Origin: Alkalispirochaeta sp.
Lineage (GTDB): Bacteria > Spirochaetota > Spirochaetia > DSM-27196 > Alkalispirochaetaceae
DNA: 64,000 bases
Assembly (NCBI GenBank): GCA_965242725.1
Contig: CBDESZ010000016.1
Coordinates: 192,001 to 256,000, forward strand
Reading direction: 5' to 3'
This document shows, one piece after another, positions 24,001-30,000 of the stretch. How positions within the stretch are numbered: the stretch's first letter is position 1; every line of letters begins with the position of its first letter. A program made the position numbers.

Positions 24001-27000
24001 CTTCTTGTTGCCCACCTTGTGATACAGGTTGTACTCCGCCCACGCAAAGAGCGGCGGAGACAATCCATCCGGATTATCGTCGGAAATGATCGGTTTCCCC
24101 GTTTCAAGGGAATACTCCGAACGGACGGCGCCGTCTTCTTCCTGTTTGGCGTAAAAATTGTCCAGCAGCGGTGCGGCGGGATAGTTTCTGTTGCTGTATA
24201 CCAGGAAAAATGTAGCATTTATCGCGTCGAGCTGATTGATTCGATCGGCGTCGGGGGCGACAAAGACCCGCGGATCAAATCCGCTCTTGTCCTGGCTTTT
24301 TTGCCAGTAGTCTTTTATCCACGCCCACGTCTGCTCGTATATGTCTACAAAATCCTGATCGTAGAAGTGTATCGTTGGAAACTCTTTTTTTATTACCACG
24401 CGTCTTTATCCTATACTTGGGGGTGCAGTCCTACAAAATAGCGCGTCCAACCCCGTTCGTCAAATACGCCAAGTCCTTGCTTGACATGCTTATACCGCAC
24501 TGTCATAGTTCCTCCCATGGACCCTTCTGAACTCAGAACCACCGTTGATATGGCGATGCTTGAGATAGACGAGCAACATATCGAGGCGCTGGAAGGTGCC
24601 CTTCGACAGATGTTGGACTATTTTACCACTATGTCGACCGTTGATGTGGAAAATGTCGAACCAACCACGCACGCGCTCCTGACGGAAAACCGTACCCGGC
24701 GTGACTACCCCGATCGGATGGTTGATCCCGATACCCTCCTTGAGAATGCCGCCGATCTGGAAGACCGGTTTCTGGCGGTCCCCAACGTATTATAAAGCGA
24801 TGTGGAAGACAATAGTTAAAACGAAACGGGAGCAGTATGTTCGCTTTCTGCAGGAGCAGGATAGTGAAACGGGCTCCTTTCTTGAAATCGGAGAGCCCCG
24901 GCGGTGGAACGTGTCTCTTTCCGCCGCGGAACAATCAGCCGACGATCGTGACCTGACGGAGGTCGTCGCGGAGGCGGGAGAATCCCTTCACCTTCCCGTG
25001 GCGGTGAAGGACAATATCGCCGTGACGGGATACCACCTGACCTGCGGCAGCCGGATGCTTGAAGAGGTGGTGAGTCCCTATACGGCGACGTCGATACGCC
25101 GCCTTGTTGCGGCGGGTGCCGCCGTGGTGGGCAAGACCAATCTTGACGAGTTCGGGATGGGCAGTTCCACCGATAACTCGGCGCTGAAAAAGACAAACAA
25201 TCCCTGGGATTATAACCGCGTTGCAGGCGGCTCCAGCGGCGGCTCCGCGGCGGCGGTTGCACAGCAGCTGGTTCCTCTGGCAGTGGGAAGCGATACCGGC
25301 GGTTCAGTGCGACAGCCCGCCGCGTTTTGCGGTGTCTACGGTCTGAAACCGACCTACGGTACGATTTCCCGCTACGGCCTGGTTGCCTATGCGTCGTCAT
25401 TGGAGGGTATCGGCCTTCTCGGTGCCGACGTATCCCTTCTCGCGCAGGCGTACCGCGTCATGGCCGCCCGGGACGATCGGGATCAGACGTCGGTGTCGCG
25501 GCCGGACGGGAGTGCCGAGGGGTCTGGAACGGCGGCGGACGCGGATACAGCGGGTGGTGCGGCCCGGGGCGGGGCCCTCAGGATCGGCGTCCTCGCCGGA
25601 GATCTGGGTCTCGATGAACCGGTGGCACGCAACTATCGCGCCACCGTGGAAGCGCTCAATGATCTGGGCCACGAGACGGCACCGGTCTCGCTCTCCACTC
25701 TGGAGTACGTCGTACCGGCGTACTACACGATCGCCGCCGCCGAGGCGGCGGCCAATCTCGCGCGATACAACGGCGTGCGCTACGGGTATCGGCCCGCCTT
25801 TTCGGAAAATCCGGAAGAGCTCATGCGCGCCGCCCGTACGGAAGCGCTGGGGGACGAGGTAAAGCTCCGTATCGTCCTGGGAACCTACGTCCTGAGAAGC
25901 GGTTTTCAGGATCAGTATTACACCCGGGCGCAGAAAATTCGCACCCTCATACGCCGTGAACTGAACGAGAAGTTCCGGGAATTTGACCTCATGGTACTGC
26001 CCACATTTCCGACCCAGGCCTTTGCTCACGGCGACAAGGGTATGGACGCCTTTCAGCAGAAGGTTGCAGACCGGTTTACCGGTACGGCCAACCTCGCGGC
26101 GATCCCGGCGCTTACCGTGCCGACGGGGCTTGAAAAGGGTCTGCCCGTGGGCATGCAGCTCATGGGACCCGCCTTCAGCGAAGAGCGTCTCTTTGCGGTA
26201 GCCGGTGCGCTGGCGAAGCGAATGCCCGTGGAATTCCCGGCAAACTCGAAGTCCTTCCAATCCTGGGAGGGCTGACTGTCGCCCCGGGGAACATCGCTCC
26301 GATTCGGTCGTTCCCGGGAGATGAAATACCAACAGAAAGAGGGACGTGGAGCCGTCTTGCGTCCCGATGAACGGAGAAGGGGAAAAGCAGCGTGTACCAG
26401 TCTTTTATCGGACTAGAAATCCATACCCAGTTGTTGACGGAGACAAAGGTCTTTTGTGATTGTCGCGCCAATTTCGGCGATGAACCGAACACCAATGTCT
26501 GCCCTGTATGCATGGGCTATCCAGGTGTATTGCCTGCCCTCAATGAAGAGGCGATTCGTATGGCCTATACCGTCGCCCGGGCGCTCAATTGTGATCTCAA
26601 TCCGCGCTGCCTCTTCGACCGGAAGAATTACTTCTATCCCGATCTGCCCAAGAACTACCAGATTACCCAGTTTTATGAGCCCCTCGGCCGCAACGGATAC
26701 ATCGATATCGAGTTTCACAAGAAAAAGAAGCGTGTCCGTATTCATGAGATCCACCTGGAGGAAGACGCCGGAAAGATGATCCACGCCGGGGACATGTCCC
26801 TTCTCGACTACAATCGCGCGGGAACGCCACTTCTTGAAATCGTAACGGAACCGGATCTCGAAATCGGCGACGAGGCGGAAGTCCTTCTGCAGGAGTTGCG
26901 TCGCATGGTCCGCTACCTGGGCGTCTGCGACGGTAACATGGAGGAAGGGTCCCTCCGCTGCGACGCAAACGTCTCGGTGAACCGTGCCGGCGAGGGTCTG

Positions 27001-30000
27001 GGAAACAAGGTCGAAATCAAAAACCTCAACAGCTCCCGCTTTGTCCGCAAGGCGCTCAACTTCGAGATTGAACGACAGGAGGAAATCCTGGAGCGGGGCG
27101 GCACGGTGACGCAGGAAACTCGATTGTGGAACGAGAACCGGGACCTCACGGAGAGCATGCGCTCAAAGGAGAGCGCCCACGATTACCGTTACTTTCCCGA
27201 GCCGGACCTCCCGCCCTTTACCGCGGACGACGCCTTCCTCGCAAAGGTTGAAGCCTCCCTTGTCGAACTCCCTGCGCCGCGGCGCGTTCGTTTTCGAAAA
27301 GACTACGGCCTCAGCACCTCCCAGGCGGAGTTTATATGCGACGAGAAAAGCACCGCCGACTTCTTTGAGGCCGCCGTGGAAGAGGGCGCCGATGGTGAAC
27401 AGCTTGCGATCTGGCTCGCCGGGGATGTGCGAAAACAGCTGAACCGCAGCGGCGTTACGCTGCAGGAGAGCCCCCTCACCCCCTCACGCATGGCCTCTCT
27501 TCTCAAGATGCTCGACGGCGGCGTGATCCACGGAAAGATCGCCAAACAGGTCCTTTCCATGATCTTTGTGGAGGACAAGGACCCCGACCGTATTATTTCG
27601 GAGCAGGGATGGGAGCAGATCACCGATCCCGCCGAGCTCACGGAGGTGTTGCGGGACGTATTGGCCGCCCACCCCCAGGCGGAGAATCAGATCCGTGAGG
27701 GAGACCGCAAACCCTGGGGTTTTCTGGTGGGACAGATCATGCAGGCCACCAGCGGCCGCGCGGAACCGTCCCTGGTCCAGAAGATTCTCCAGGATCACTT
27801 TACCGTCAGTACCATCGACGTTTTTTCCTTCGGCGGCGCCATCGCCGGTCACCGGGAGGAAAACGGCCTTGTCGTTCCGGGAGACCTGAAGAACGTCAGG
27901 GAACTGCTGCAGCAGGATCCGGCGCTGCCGGGAGGGCTCAGTTTTGAGGAAATCCAGCTCGGACGCTTTCTCAGTGAGGAGATCACCCCCGCCGACTGGG
28001 CCGCCCTTGTCGCCCGGACCGCCCAACGGCTCGAGACGGGGGAGAGCCGGGGCATCGTCATCGGCCACGGGACCGATACCCTCACATATACGGCCAGCCT
28101 CCTGTACTGGTTTTTTGCGGACGCGAGGATTCCCATCGTTCTGACCGCCAGCGCCGTTCCCACCGGGGACGGGAGCCGCGGCGAGGGCGTTGAAAACCTC
28201 CGGCGCGCCGTGGCGACCGCCGCGGGAACGGATCGGGGTATACATGTAGTCTACGGCAGCGACGACTACCTGCCGCTGAATCTGAAATTCGAGCGCGCCG
28301 GGAGCAGCGACGTCTACGTCGGCGCCTTCCGGAACTGGAACACTCAGCGTCTTACGAGAAGCGGTCACGCCCTTGCCTCCTCCGCCCGCTCCCTGAATAA
28401 GGAGAAGCTCGTCGAACTCTTGGAGACGGCGATAGGCCGTACCTTCATCGCCAAGGTCTATCCGGGAATGCGGGGAGAGACGCTGATCGCCCTTATGGAC
28501 GCGGGAATTCGCTACTTTGTTCTGGAAATATACGATACGGGAACGGCCAATTTGAGGGAGACGCCCTTCTCCCTGAAAAAGGCACTGACGGAAGGACGGG
28601 AACGGGGCGTTTCCTTCTTTTGCACCTCCCAGCAGGAGGGGGTTGTCGACTTTTCCGAGTATGTGACGGCCCATCAGCTCTGGCGGGAAGGAGCCATTCC
28701 GATGGGAGCCCTGACCACCGAGACGGCATGGACACGCCTCGTCGCCGCCCAGGTTGAGGCGATGGCGGGGGAGTATGAAGGGCAGACAATTGAAGAGACG
28801 GTACTGCAGTTAATGGAGGACGGACAATGAGAGTGTTGGCGCGGGACGTGGCGGCCCGGGAGGGAACGGAAGTAACGGTATCGGGATGGGTTCACCGCAT
28901 TCGCAATCTCGGAGGTATCAGTTTTGTGATGCTTCGCGACCGGAGCGGTCTCGTCCAGGTCGTCTACGAGAGCGAGCCGGAATTTGGCCACGAGACGGTT
29001 ATCTCCGTCACGGGGAGCGTTGCGGCCAATGAAAAGGCGGAGGGCGGCTTTGAGATTCACGCCTCCTCGACGGAGATTCTCGGTTCCGTTGAGGCTGACC
29101 TTCCCGTGGCGGTGAATCAGGACCTGGGAAAGCTCGGCATCGATGCGCTGCTGGACAACAGACTGGTGACCCTGCGGAACCCTCGGGTTCGACATATATT
29201 TGAACTGCAGGCGGGAATTCTGAAGTACTTCGCCGAATGGCTGCGGGGCGAAGGCTTTACGGAAATAAAGTCGTCCAAAATCATCGGATCCGGTACGGAG
29301 GGGGGGACGGGCCTCTTTTCCGTGGACTACTTCGGCGAGACCGTCTTTCTTGCGCAGAGCCCCCAGTTTTACAAGCAGGCGATGGTGGCCTCCGGCCTGG
29401 AGCGCGTCTTTGAGATCGGCGCCGCTTATCGGGCGGAGAAGCACGACACGCCGCGGCACCTCAATGAGTACGTCTCCCTCGATGTGGAAATGGGCTTTAT
29501 CGAGAGCGAGGCGGACCTGATGGACCTCGAAGTGGGACTGCTGGGCCACATCTTTGAGAGCGTGGCCCGCGATTTCGGATACGTTCTTGAGGAGTACGGC
29601 GTTTCCGTACCGACCGCTGAGGAGATGCGGAAGACGCCCCGTATCAGCCACGACGACGCCAAGAAGATCATCAAGGAGCGGACGGGGAAGAGCGCCTTTG
29701 AGATCAATCCCGAGGGCGAGCGGGAGCTCTGCGACTGGGCCCTTGAGGAGCACGGTGTGGACGCCGTCTTCGTCTTCGCCTTTCCCCGGAAGAAACGGCC
29801 TTTTTACACCTTTCCAGAAGGTCTCAAGACGCGGAGCTTCGATCTTCTCTTTCGGGGGCTTGAAATTACGACGGGAGGGCAGCGTATCCACGACTACCGG
29901 ACCCTGCTTGAGACGCTGCCCAAGTTCGGCCTTACCGAGGAGGGACTTGGTGACTACTGCTCTATTTTCAAGTTCGGGTGTCCCCCCCACGGCGGATTTG

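Follow-up and report, generated by a model that had tools for sequence, protein, structure and literature searches.

A GatB subunit fused to a putatively inactive asparaginase-fold domain in a gatC-gatA-gatB-aspS operon of Alkalispirochaeta

The gatC-gatA-gatB-aspS locus

The window analyzed here is a 64,000-nucleotide stretch of an Alkalispirochaeta sp. genome (contig CBDESZ010000016.1, positions 192,001 to 256,000), and its relevant features are listed in Table 1 with positions counted from the first nucleotide of the window. Four genes follow one another in the order gatC, gatA, gatB fused to an additional domain, and an aspS of the archaeal, non-discriminating type. The genome-wide survey's note had described a gatC-gatA-gatB::asparaginase-aspS operon, with which the coordinates and the Pfam and NCBIfam scores agree. 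The likely start of gatC is an ATG within a longer TTG-initiated ORF (24481-24795), and the ATG of gatA lies 4 nt past the gatC stop codon. The gatA product, which falls slightly short of the TIGR00132 cut-off, has a Gly/Ala/Asp-rich insert and keeps the amidase motifs KDNIAV, GGSSGGS and GGSVRQPA, which we take to hold the Ser-cisSer-Lys triad. The TGA of the gatB fusion overlaps the ATG of aspS (ATGA), and aspS is translationally coupled to it. The aspS product also exceeds the TIGR00458 cut-off (382 against 368.4 bits), the term non-discriminating being that of the NCBIfam naming.

Table 1. Features of the locus, in window coordinates
Feature	Position	Strand	Evidence and remarks
MGH1-like glycoside hydrolase gene	22972..24399	-	Pfam MGH1-like_GH 2.1e-34; divergent to the operon
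gatC	24517..24795	+	Pfam GatC 1.2e-14; TIGR00135 64.1 bits, cut-off 47.1
gatA	24800..26275	+	Pfam Amidase 417 bits; TIGR00132 467.7 bits, cut-off 481.1
gatB fusion ORF	26392..28830	+	812 aa, single ORF, GTG start
GatB proper, aa 1-468	26392..27795	+	Pfam, NCBIfam, alignment with canonical GatBs
Putative asparaginase-fold pseudoenzyme domain, aa 473-790	27808..28761	+	Pfam, PDB matches, MAFFT, AF2, Foldseek
C-terminal helix, aa 791-812, with lineage-specific insert, then stop codon	28762..28830	+	
aspS, archaeal-type aspartate--tRNA(Asn) ligase	28827..30098	+	NF003483 498.6 bits, cut-off 353

The length of the fusion and its four Pfam ranges are exactly those given before: GatB_N (aa 5-282, 393 bits), GatB_Yqey (aa 323-468, 144 bits), Asparaginase (aa 475-621, 3.5e-25) and Asparaginase_C (aa 685-786, 1e-9). 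The cradle or catalytic domain of GatB (aa 5-282) is followed by a helical domain and by the YqeY tail (aa 323-468); residues 2-469 score 619.9 bits against the GatB equivalog NF004012 (NCBIfam, cut-off 338), and the canonical motifs GLEIH, RKNYFYPDLPKNYQ, HLEEDAGK, LLEIVTE and RCDANVS are kept. Judged from its sequence, this part is a canonical and apparently catalytically competent kinase/amidotransferase subunit of GatCAB. It is also the sole GatB of the genome, as had been claimed, GatB_N having one match across the 4.34 Mb.

The same genome encodes GlnRS (707.7 bits), AsnRS (651 bits), AsnA (347 bits), an AsnB-like Asn_synthase (289 bits) and a bacterial AspRS beside the archaeal-type aspS; of the 99 genomes of the order, 87 were found to have AsnRS and 85 GlnRS. 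Since this genome has GlnRS and AsnRS, tRNA charging does not depend on the operon, which, given also AsnA and the AsnB-like gene, appears as a tRNA-dependent asparagine route of the Thermus/Deinococcus kind that is not obligatory for charging. The tRNA(Asn) has U1-A72 and the tRNA(Asp) G1-C72, the distinction given as the identity rule of bacterial GatCAB in PMC2811023 and PMC2330236. Thermus and Deinococcus are precedents for tRNA-dependent Asn synthesis with an extra archaeal-type aspS, T. thermophilus and D. radiodurans having the same set of gatC, gatA, gatB, extra archaeal-type aspS, AsnRS, GlnRS and bacterial AspRS (PMC4206432), and the U1-A72 tRNA(Asn) being a further likeness. The genome studied here differs in having AsnA and the AsnB-like gene in addition, and in that its GatB bears a 340-residue asparaginase-fold domain after the tail, of which the parts of PMC2811023, PMC2330236 and PMC4206432 consulted make no mention for the Thermus and Deinococcus systems.

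Sequence and predicted fold of the C-terminal domain

A linker of 2 residues joins the GatB tail to the domain (helix 459-470, strand 473-479 in the AF2 model). The model of the domain has a pLDDT of 93 and a pTM of 0.93; that of the full-length protein, with a pTM of 0.59, does not establish how the domain is placed with respect to GatB. As the survey's note had stated, the nearest PDB sequences are archaeal asparaginases and GatD (4q0m, 6.7e-20; 1zq1, 5.1e-18). Foldseek likewise places archaeal type I asparaginases at the top (4q0m, E 4.6e-21, TM 0.76/0.80) and GatD at ranks 24 and 48, and the NCBIfam scores of the C-terminal part are 96.3 against a cut-off of 260.5 for type I asparaginase and 93.4 against 324 for GatD. 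In the free tree the fused domains form one clade (SH-aLRT 100, stem length 1.36) apart from the GatD-like rows, while in the AU test a position as sister of GatD has p 0.105 and is not rejected. The earlier designation "GatD-like" is therefore unspecific, and the domain also lacks the N-terminal domain of GatD.

Conservation was assessed on a MAFFT alignment of 111 full-length rows, namely the window's protein and 110 others of at least 735 aa among the 120 matches listed, the 9 shorter rows being left out. Ala483 (codon GCC, 27838-27840) occupies the position of the nucleophile Thr (GGAIA, hence GGA versus GGT), HGTDT lies at aa 559-563 (28066-28080) and Lys632 within NLKFER. Among these fusions, position 483 is Ala in 109 of 111 rows, with one Ser and one Thr, and the G-T-D-T of HGTDT is found in all 111, in line with the claim that the Thr was replaced by a conserved Ala and HGTDT was retained. 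The lid Tyr is absent, a Leu standing opposite the Tyr of the NGY motif of 4q0m in the PDB sequence alignment, and Tyr is not among the three commonest residues at position 493 (L in 63, D in 18 and V in 11 of the 111 rows). The Lys632 position holds K in 91 rows, R in 19 and H in one, whereas the pocket residues S528, N630, G481 and G482 are invariant in all 111 and lie outside the dimer interface predicted below. The C-terminal segment includes a helix (800-809, full-length AF2 model), and residues 794-801 are gaps in 84 to 88 of the 111 rows. Compared with type I L-asparaginases such as those of P. furiosus (4q0m) and E. coli (AnsA, 2p2d), the domain shares the two-subdomain fold (TM 0.76-0.81), HGTDT, the Lys position and, by prediction, the intimate dimer; it differs by the Thr-to-Ala and lid Tyr-to-Leu replacements, by its fusion to GatB and by its separate, long-stemmed clade. 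Taken together, these features indicate that the domain is a catalytically dead pseudoenzyme of type I asparaginase fold. As GatA keeps its amidase motifs, the domain does not replace the glutaminase, which agrees with the survey's note. Catalytic residues are further decayed in other lineages, as is expected of a pseudoenzyme: HGTDT is replaced by HGLDT in P0152, P0155, P0156 and P0154, by HGPDT in P0144, by HGADT in P0146 and by MGTDT in P0141. Eight same-genus pairs were tried for dN/dS (NG86), with dS saturated; the rough values, 0.10-0.17 for the domain (7 usable pairs) as compared with 0.03-0.08 for GatB itself (6 usable pairs), place the domain under purifying selection.

Distribution of the fusion and an orphan paralogue

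The survey's note had GatB unfused elsewhere in the phylum save two genomes, which is misleading: within the window's own order, 73 of 99 genomes (39 of the 50 of high quality) were found to carry the C-domain, with open frames some 800-1000 aa long, and an even sample over the phylum yielded it in 13 of 401 genomes. Within the order the fusion is the norm rather than near-unique. It is a conserved departure from an otherwise well-known enzyme, and no description of a GatB with a fused pseudo-asparaginase domain was found in the literature searched. An archaeal-type aspS lies directly downstream of gatB, fused or unfused, in 85 of the 99 genomes (E<=1e-90), as it does at a distant locus of the HGLDT type (L115), and in the two subfamilies with an intact GatB the domain always stands between gatB and archaeal-type aspS. 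An unfused GatB in the same gatB-aspS operon occurs in 11 genomes of the order, from six genera, so that the domain is dispensable for the pathway.

Treponema and Breznakiella possess an orphan paralogue that has lost the GatB catalytic motifs and retains the tRNA-binding tail and asparaginase-like domain. Scores are 119-130 bits for the tail and 87-95 bits for the asparaginase-like domain, GatB_N reaches about 130 bits compared with 393 in the window's protein, and two of the three Mg-ligand positions are lost in 8 of 8 rows aligned with canonical GatBs. At the loci checked, neither gatC nor gatA nor aspS is adjacent to the paralogue, and in three of the five Treponema/Breznakiella genomes checked no archaeal-type aspS above cut-off was found. 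Its retention without these genes nearby implies that the role of the domain is not limited to an AspRS-GatCAB complex. At L028, L031 and L032 a gene of the MGH1-like family likewise precedes the fused gene in opposite orientation; it is a synteny marker common to the operon locus and the Treponema-type orphan loci, and otherwise context.

Possible roles of the domain

Other fusions likewise join parts of this pathway in one polypeptide: GlnRS-YqeY in D. radiodurans and gatC-gatA in mycobacteria (PMC1865053, PMC7541841), and AspRS-GatC, by the name of NCBIfam NF009460. Unlike the fusion described here, none has an asparaginase-fold domain or a pseudoenzyme. A closer likeness is offered by archaeal GatDE, an alpha2-beta2 assembly of two GatE on a GatD homodimer whose nucleophile is a Thr (PMC2330236). 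There too a type I asparaginase fold is physically linked with a kinase subunit of the GatB/E type, and our domain gives sequence and fold matches to GatD that are comparable to its asparaginase matches. In contrast to GatDE, the link is covalent and C-terminal to the tail, GatA and GatC are still present, Ala stands in place of the Thr that GatD needs, and the GatD N-terminal domain is missing.

The domain was predicted to form a homodimer with a score of 0.89 (runs 0.88, 0.89 and 0.89; best control 0.00), at least 96% of contacts being common to the runs and the partner having a pLDDT of 86. In the calibration of the method, the mark was reached for 20 of 30 proteins whose solved structures are pairs and for 1 of 23 solved as single chains; as asparaginase dimers are already solved, the pass may reflect likeness to known structures. 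The classical "intimate" asparaginase interface is predicted to be kept, and it holds the family-invariant motifs A483, EEITP.DW, TDT, ELYDTGTANLR and SQQEG. The predictions covered the domain, singly and as a pair, and the full-length fusion protein. The fused domain probably pairs two enzyme copies, and its role would be structural, dimerizing or regulatory, as the survey's note proposed. Our favored explanation, which we consider evenly poised between right and wrong, is that the pseudo-asparaginase dimerizes GatCAB to match the dimeric AspRS. The domain would join two GatCAB heterotrimers tail to tail, and the (GatCAB)2 so formed would fit the non-discriminating AspRS, a dimer specified by the overlapping downstream gene, together with two tRNA(Asn). 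This arrangement, which recalls GatDE, would give the Asn transamidosome a built-in scaffold, and ammonia would still come from GatA.

A possible though distinctly less probable role is that of a ligand sensor, in which the dead site would still take up an amino acid, be it the product, free Asn, or an amide donor or substrate (Gln, Asp or Asn), and so tune tRNA binding or transamidation. An example would be feedback on the tRNA-dependent route at times of ample Asn, when AsnRS can charge the tRNA directly. The rigid join to the tRNA-binding tail would be the route of modulation, and such a role is compatible with dimerization. S528 and E529 (LSEE) and T561 and D562 (HGTDT), each invariant in 111 of 111 rows, are presumably the substrate-binding positions of EcAII-type enzymes, and Ala483 is maintained even though one substitution, GCC to ACC, would suffice to regain Thr. 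Asparaginases with a nucleophile Thr-to-Ala mutation have been crystallized with L-Asn (PDB titles 7c8x, 5dnc), allosteric regulation is indicated for E. coli asparaginase I (PDB title 2p2d), the alternative Asn routes of the genome would make regulation useful, and the domain persists in the orphan paralogues without amidotransferase chemistry. However, the pocket is unevenly kept, with Leu for the second Thr in the HGLDT clade and Arg or His for Lys632 in 20 of 111 rows, and most invariant motifs fall in the predicted dimer interface, which could on its own account for their conservation. It seems unlikely that the domain and the YqeY tail instead enlarge the surface that binds tRNA, or protect the labile ester of Asp- or Asn-tRNA(Asn) before it is handed off, an activity that would be the only one left in the Treponema-type paralogue. 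The short linker speaks for such a module, as do the good conservation of tail and domain in the orphans while GatB_N decays and the role of the GatB tail, which contacts the tRNA D-loop and without which tRNA is not bound (PMC2811023); yet the GatDE-tRNA structure assigns tRNA recognition to GatE and not to GatD (PMC2330236). We know of no RNA-binding protein of the asparaginase fold, and neither a basic patch nor a motif for RNA binding was noticed in the domain, though no search was aimed at one.

Residual amidase activity, in which the domain would use another nucleophile such as Thr561 to free ammonia from Asn or Gln and would thereby supply GatB from a second site, is very improbable. 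HGTDT and, in the window's protein, Lys632 are kept, and a few relatives have Ser or Thr at 483 (GGSI in P0131, GGTI in P0139 and P0146), but neither the nucleophile Thr nor the lid Tyr is present, no conserved Ser, Thr or Cys lies beside 483 (position 485 is S in 52, A in 35 and V in 13 of 111 rows), and whole clades have Leu or Pro for the second Thr. Moreover, an intact GatA next door already provides ammonia, and the domain sits on a mobile tail, distant in sequence from the active site of the cradle domain, with no channel inferable. Hardly credible is a functionless remnant of a fusion that is being lost: the loss of the catalytic residue and the 11 genomes running the operon without the domain would fit, whereas the in-frame domain in 73 of 99 genomes, the low dN/dS (about 0.1-0.17), dozens of invariant columns over 111 sequences with identity down to 47%, the confident AF2 fold and the retention of the domain in paralogues with a decayed GatB half argue against it.

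With regard to the transamidosome scaffold that we favor, the unfused genomes of the order and the paralogue kept without neighboring partners in Treponema and Breznakiella are observations that stand against it. The maintenance of Ala483 and the invariant pocket outside the interface are explained no less well by a ligand pocket that has been kept than by a scaffold alone.

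The fused gatB gene and its operon

A GatB extended by an asparaginase-like domain within a gatC-gatA-gatB-aspS operon had been claimed in the genome-wide survey's note, and this fusion is confirmed by a single open reading frame, by Pfam and NCBIfam scores, by the operon partners and by the one GatB_N match found in the source genome (4.34 Mb in 34 contigs, completeness 92%). The GatB half (aa 2-469) lies above the NCBIfam equivalog cut-off (NF004012, 619.9 bits against 338), scores 555.7 bits with TIGR00133 (cut-off 314.8) and keeps the motifs GLEIH, HLEEDAGK and LLEIVTE, as canonical GatBs do in the alignment. 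By our own reading of the alignment, these motifs would supply the His/Glu/Glu Mg ligands that correspond to His15, Glu157 and Glu184 of GatE, residues whose mutation, according to the available part of PMC2330236, abolishes activity. Judged by its sequence, the sole GatB of this genome is intact.

Features of the operon and of related genes (positions are those of the window unless a contig or locus is named; aa, residues of the fused protein)
Feature	Position	Strand	Remarks
gatC	ATG at 24517	+	directly upstream in the operon
gatA	24800-26275 (ATG at 24800)	+	between gatC and the gatB fusion
gatB fusion	26392-28830	+	single 812-aa ORF; GTG start, GGAGAAGGGG directly before the start
GatB_N	aa 5-282		Pfam, 393 bits
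GatB_Yqey	aa 323-468		Pfam, 143.9 bits
Asparaginase	aa 475-621		Pfam, 3.5e-25
Asparaginase_C	aa 685-786		Pfam, 1e-9
aspS	downstream of the gatB fusion		archaeal-type aspartate--tRNA(Asn) ligase; NF003483, 498.6 bits (cut-off 353)
Aminoacylation and asparagine genes	contigs C3, C27, C18, C17, C4 (loci L004, L006, L009, L014, L011)		elsewhere in the genome
Orphan fused gene (example)	L034:4513-7017		Breznakiella homolactica RmG30
Orphan-type proteins			P0128, P0131, P0133, P0138-P0141, P0144

The adjacent GatA retains its amidase motifs and scores slightly below the TIGR00132 cut-off (467.7 against 481.1 bits); its gene (24800-26275) also encodes an insert of some 30 residues rich in Gly, Ala and Asp, SVSRPDGSAEGSGTAADADTAGGAARGG. 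The ATG of aspS overlaps the gatB TGA as ATGA and, in the order of the source organism (99 genomes, 85 of them with an archaeal-type aspS), aspS lies directly 3' of gatB, fused or unfused alike; gene order shows the operon tie between the fused gatB and the non-discriminating AspRS, a label taken from the NCBIfam name, to be fixed. An ORF of 247 aa (30100-30843) begins 2 nt past the aspS stop and has a LAGC lipobox-like stretch; Pfam returned no family for it at E<=0.01. No Rfam family reached its gathering score over 20000-33000, so that no known leader or riboswitch lies there. Promoter-like and terminator-like sites in 24300-31300 were not above chance (2 against 1.5 expected and 5 against 6.1 expected, respectively). 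Within this chance-level count, one promoter-like site (24481-24509, TTGACA-17 nt-CATAGT with TG ahead of the second hexamer, 10/12 matches) ends 8 nt upstream of the gatC ATG, and an mRNA starting from it would thus be nearly leaderless.

The source genome also encodes a bacterial AspRS (828 bits), an AsnRS (651 bits) and a GlnRS (707.7 bits, over its cut-off), together with AsnA (347 bits) and an Asn_synthase-domain, AsnB-like protein (289 bits). With GatCAB and both types of AspRS, this set would open three possible routes to asparagine as well as two to Asn-tRNA. In the order as a whole, searches detected AsnRS in 87/99 genomes, GlnRS in 85/99 and the archaeal-type aspS in 85/99. The tRNA-Asn(GTT) carries U1-A72 and the tRNA(Asp) G1-C72, the pair of alternatives that forms the bacterial GatCAB identity rule in the available text of PMC2811023 and PMC2330236. 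In Thermus and Deinococcus, as far as the accessible part of PMC4206432 describes them, a second AspRS and GatCAB make Asn on tRNA despite the presence of AsnRS and GlnRS; the source genome resembles them in having an archaeal-type AspRS and GatCAB beside AsnRS and GlnRS, but differs in adding AsnA and an AsnB-like gene. Its only other asparaginase-family gene, on contig C13 (L002:1483-1980), encodes a 165-aa protein made of the asparaginase N-terminal subdomain alone, with TGGT and HGTDT intact.

Catalytic state, fold and origin of the extra domain

The C-terminal part scores far below the cut-off for a type I asparaginase (TIGR00519, 96.3 bits against 260.5) and for GatD (TIGR02153, 93.4 against 324). 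HMMER alignments to solved asparaginases and GatD place its GGAIA opposite GGTIA, so that Ala483 occupies the position of the GatD nucleophile, a Thr according to the available part of PMC2330236. The Ala483 codon, GCC, is a single transition from Thr. Where 4q0m (Pyrococcus furiosus type I asparaginase) has the Tyr of NGY, the domain has Leu493, and the lid-loop Tyr, which we take to be the partner of the nucleophile in type I asparaginases, is therefore absent. The window protein was also aligned with 110 further full-length fusions from the 120 matches listed, all 735 aa or longer, nine shorter rows being left out. Of these 111 aligned fusions, 109 have Ala at position 483, one has Ser and one Thr, and the three commonest residues of column 493 do not include Tyr. 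The survey's note had proposed both that the first catalytic Thr is replaced by a conserved Ala and that HGTDT is retained; both points hold, the latter for the window protein itself and, as G-T-D-T, for 111/111 of these matches. Also invariant in all 111 are LSEE, P533, D535, W536, N630, D715, TSQQ and Y757, and many further columns vary little or not at all. The window protein has the Thr-Asp-Lys triad (HGTDT and K632); in the column that corresponds to the catalytic Lys, 91 of the 111 aligned fusions have K, 19 have R and one has H. Every unfused full-length match with a detectable N-terminal motif in the motif listing had GGT.

The AF2 model of the extra domain (pLDDT 93, pTM 0.93) has the two-subdomain asparaginase fold, and Foldseek places archaeal type I asparaginases at the top of its list (4q0m, 4.6e-21, TM 0.76/0.80), with GatD at ranks 24 and 48. 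Prediction of a homodimer from two copies of the domain scored 0.89 (runs 0.88, 0.89 and 0.89, with at least 96% of contacts in common; partner pLDDT 86) against 0.00 for the best control, in a calibration where 20/30 proteins solved as pairs and 1/23 solved as single chains reached the mark. The predicted interface is that of the classical intimate asparaginase dimer (A483, aa 493-496, 529-536, T561-T563, 712-727 and 746-751), and its residues are the invariant motifs of the family. Since asparaginase dimers have already been solved, the high score indicates that the interface looks preserved and is no proof of dimerisation; an asparaginase-type homodimer is thus predicted to be preserved. 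In the full-length AF2 model (pLDDT 87, pTM 0.59), from which the placement of the domains relative to each other is not usable, two residues separate tail helix 459-470 from strand 473-479, with which the domain begins.

Nei-Gojobori dN/dS was 0.10-0.17 for the extra domain (7 usable same-genus pairs of 8) and 0.03-0.08 for the GatB part (6 pairs of 8), ratios that are rough because all dS values are saturated (1.1-2.3); the pair from locus L018 was left out because of a wrong reading frame, and the GatB part of that from L024 because its dS could not be computed. At the level of sequence, these data show an asparaginase-fold domain without a nucleophile that is conserved and selected.

The extra domain starts 2 residues past the GatB tail and lacks the N-terminal extra domain of GatD (about 90 residues), its match beginning at profile position 57 and at residue 94 of the 1zq1 chain (GatD). 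In a quick IQ-TREE analysis (82 rows, 316 columns), all fused domains and fragments form one clade (SH-aLRT 100, stem 1.36), on which basis the fusion seems to have a single origin. Four GatD-like rows (SH-aLRT 99) are nested among asparaginases, apart from the fused clade; an AU test did not reject joining the two (lnL difference 17.9, p 0.105). The domain may accordingly derive from GatD, to which the free tree lends no support but which the AU test does not reject, or from an ordinary type I asparaginase.

Distribution of the fusion and the orphan paralogues

The survey's note suggested a fusion nearly unique in the phylum, a view that had to be abandoned. The domain was found in 73/99 genomes of the order (39/50 high-quality genomes, 18/26 genera), the open frames being some 800-1000 aa long, and is therefore a clade character; of 401 genomes sampled evenly across the phylum, 13 have it at E<=1e-25, all in the same class. 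Within the order, GatB_N was found in 88/99 genomes, nearly always as one GatB gene, the exceptions being two genes in genome G091 and two contig-end fragments in genome G063. The genomes of the order outside the 73 comprise 11 (6 genera) with a clearly unfused GatB, four with GatB truncated by contig ends and 11 where no GatB was found. A domain-only scan of 1.84 billion representatives gave 3139 matches at E<=1e-3, of which 33 reached E<=1e-30; fused proteins or their fragments, down to about 30% identity, headed the list, and beyond them came unfused asparaginases with GGT and HGTDT. Among the named records with the fusion are those of Alkalispirochaeta spp., Breznakiella homolactica RmG30 and Treponema phagedenis. 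At locus L030 (a Spirochaetota MAG), with gatC upstream, the gatA, gatB-fusion and aspS matches change frame repeatedly, which suggests assembly errors or a decaying operon.

Some fused lineages have decayed further, with HGLDT (proteins P0152, P0154, P0155 and P0156), HGPDT (P0144), HGADT (P0146), MGTDT (P0141) or GGLDS (P0157); the second Thr is gone in the HGLDT, HGPDT and HGADT lineages. In a few fusions Ser or Thr occupies the first position (GGSI in P0131, GGTI in P0139). For the HGLDT type one locus was recovered (L115, a metagenome contig), with the order gatA, gatB-domain fusion, archaeal-type aspS and an intact GatB; a metagenome scan with P0152 returned the fused form at its own locus only, the other 79 loci being ordinary GatBs.

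The Treponema/Breznakiella type differs in its surroundings. At its six loci (L028, L029, L031-L034), with fused ORFs of 791-837 aa, no gatC, gatA or aspS was found within 5-6 kb; at L028, L031 and L032 the fused ORF adjoins a divergently oriented gene for an MGH1-like glycosidase, which the window has too. In these orphan paralogues GatB_N scores about 130 bits against 393, while tail and asparaginase-like domain are conserved, at 119-130 and 87-95 bits respectively (Pfam, L031 and L034). GLEIH has become LE.R and LLEIVT ..R.(K/R)T in 8/8 aligned members, so that two of the three positions equated with Mg ligands would be gone; RKNYFYPD is also absent. Of five orphan-carrying genomes checked, four have a canonical unfused GatB elsewhere, followed in Breznakiella by an archaeal-type aspS, and three gave no archaeal-type aspS over cut-off. 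The orphan paralogue thus appears to be a doubly dead enzyme, and its retention implies a role for tail plus domain that needs neither amidotransferase chemistry nor AspRS. One member, P0139 (Treponema phagedenis, WP_252507105.1), keeps GGTI, HGTDT and NLKF beside a degenerate GatB half; the tree nests it among GGA members, so its Thr may be a reversion, and its asparaginase-like domain might be active.

Possible roles of the domain

The reading we favour, which we hold to be evenly balanced between right and wrong, is that the extra domain would join two GatCAB units through their tRNA-binding tails, the resulting pair matching a dimeric AspRS with two tRNA(Asn). Such a (GatCAB)2 layout recalls archaeal GatDE, in which two GatE sit on one GatD dimer (PMC2330236, available part). 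The GatB tail to which the domain is attached is a mobile element that contacts the D-loop of the tRNA and is indispensable for tRNA binding (PMC2811023, available part). Against it stand the 11 genomes of the order that have the same operon with the domain absent, and the orphan paralogues. Compatible with dimerisation, and possible although on the unlikely side, is the rival idea that the domain has kept its ligand pocket and would use it to sense Asn or a different amino acid; the maintenance of Ala483, the invariance of pocket residues outside the predicted interface and, by PDB titles, the crystallisation of Thr-to-Ala asparaginase mutants with Asn argue for it.

That the domain widens the surface for binding tRNA or aminoacyl-tRNA, as its position on the tail would allow, is decidedly unlikely in our estimate. 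A residual amidase is very improbable, P0139 notwithstanding: the nucleophile Thr is gone and the adjacent GatA has its amidase motifs, which also upholds the survey's view that the domain is no stand-in glutaminase. A functionless relic is extremely improbable for a domain so conserved. A bolder combination, which we consider speculative and rather unlikely, is a GatCAB rebuilt in GatDE style with a dead asparaginase dimer on the GatB tail, whose dead site would sense Asn or the amide donor and gate tRNA-dependent Asn synthesis against AsnRS, AsnA and AsnB, the orphan being a stand-alone tRNA-binding, amino-acid-sensing regulator; if true, the orphan would be a doubly dead enzyme given a new job.

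For the synthesis of Asn-tRNA and Gln-tRNA and the avoidance of mistranslation, GatCAB and the transamidosome serve as textbook systems whose subunit make-up is commonly taken as fixed. Free-living and host-associated spirochaetes add a clade-wide variant, a GatB with a conserved pseudo-asparaginase, and with it a natural test of whether GatDE-like dimerisation of GatCAB matters for channelling mischarged tRNA. To our knowledge little has been published on the regulation of tRNA-dependent amino-acid synthesis, for which the extra domain is a candidate regulator. The lineages are also a clear case of staged pseudoenzyme evolution, with loss of the nucleophile, loss of the second Thr in other lineages and then death of the GatB partner domain in the paralogue. 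In the full-text literature covered, which excludes most subscription journals, we found no description of a GatB-asparaginase fusion, and the available parts of PMC2811023, PMC2330236 and PMC4206432 describe the GatCAB subunits without such a domain. As a result of their two-part architecture, these proteins of about 800 aa are automatically named GatB or 'asparaginase domain-containing protein' in databases.

GatDE is called archaea-specific in the accessible text of PMC2811023 and PMC2330236. Adjacent gatE-gatD genes were observed in bacterial records, for example at L043:3737-7092 (Marinifilum flexuosum DSM 21950) and at loci L036, L040-L042, L044, L050, L055-L057, L059, L060, L069, L070, L073, L089 and L092. 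The bacterial GatE scores 468 bits (NF003107, cut-off 456) and GatD 496 bits (TIGR02153, cut-off 324), and the bacterial GatD shows 75-87% identity between records whose titles name Bacteroidales, Marinifilaceae, Lentimicrobiaceae, Saprospiraceae, Lentisphaeria and Eubacteriales. At L043:2332-3132, some 600 nt upstream of gatE at this locus, an ORF matches the NF012161 model for class D beta-lactamases (312 bits, cut-off 250).
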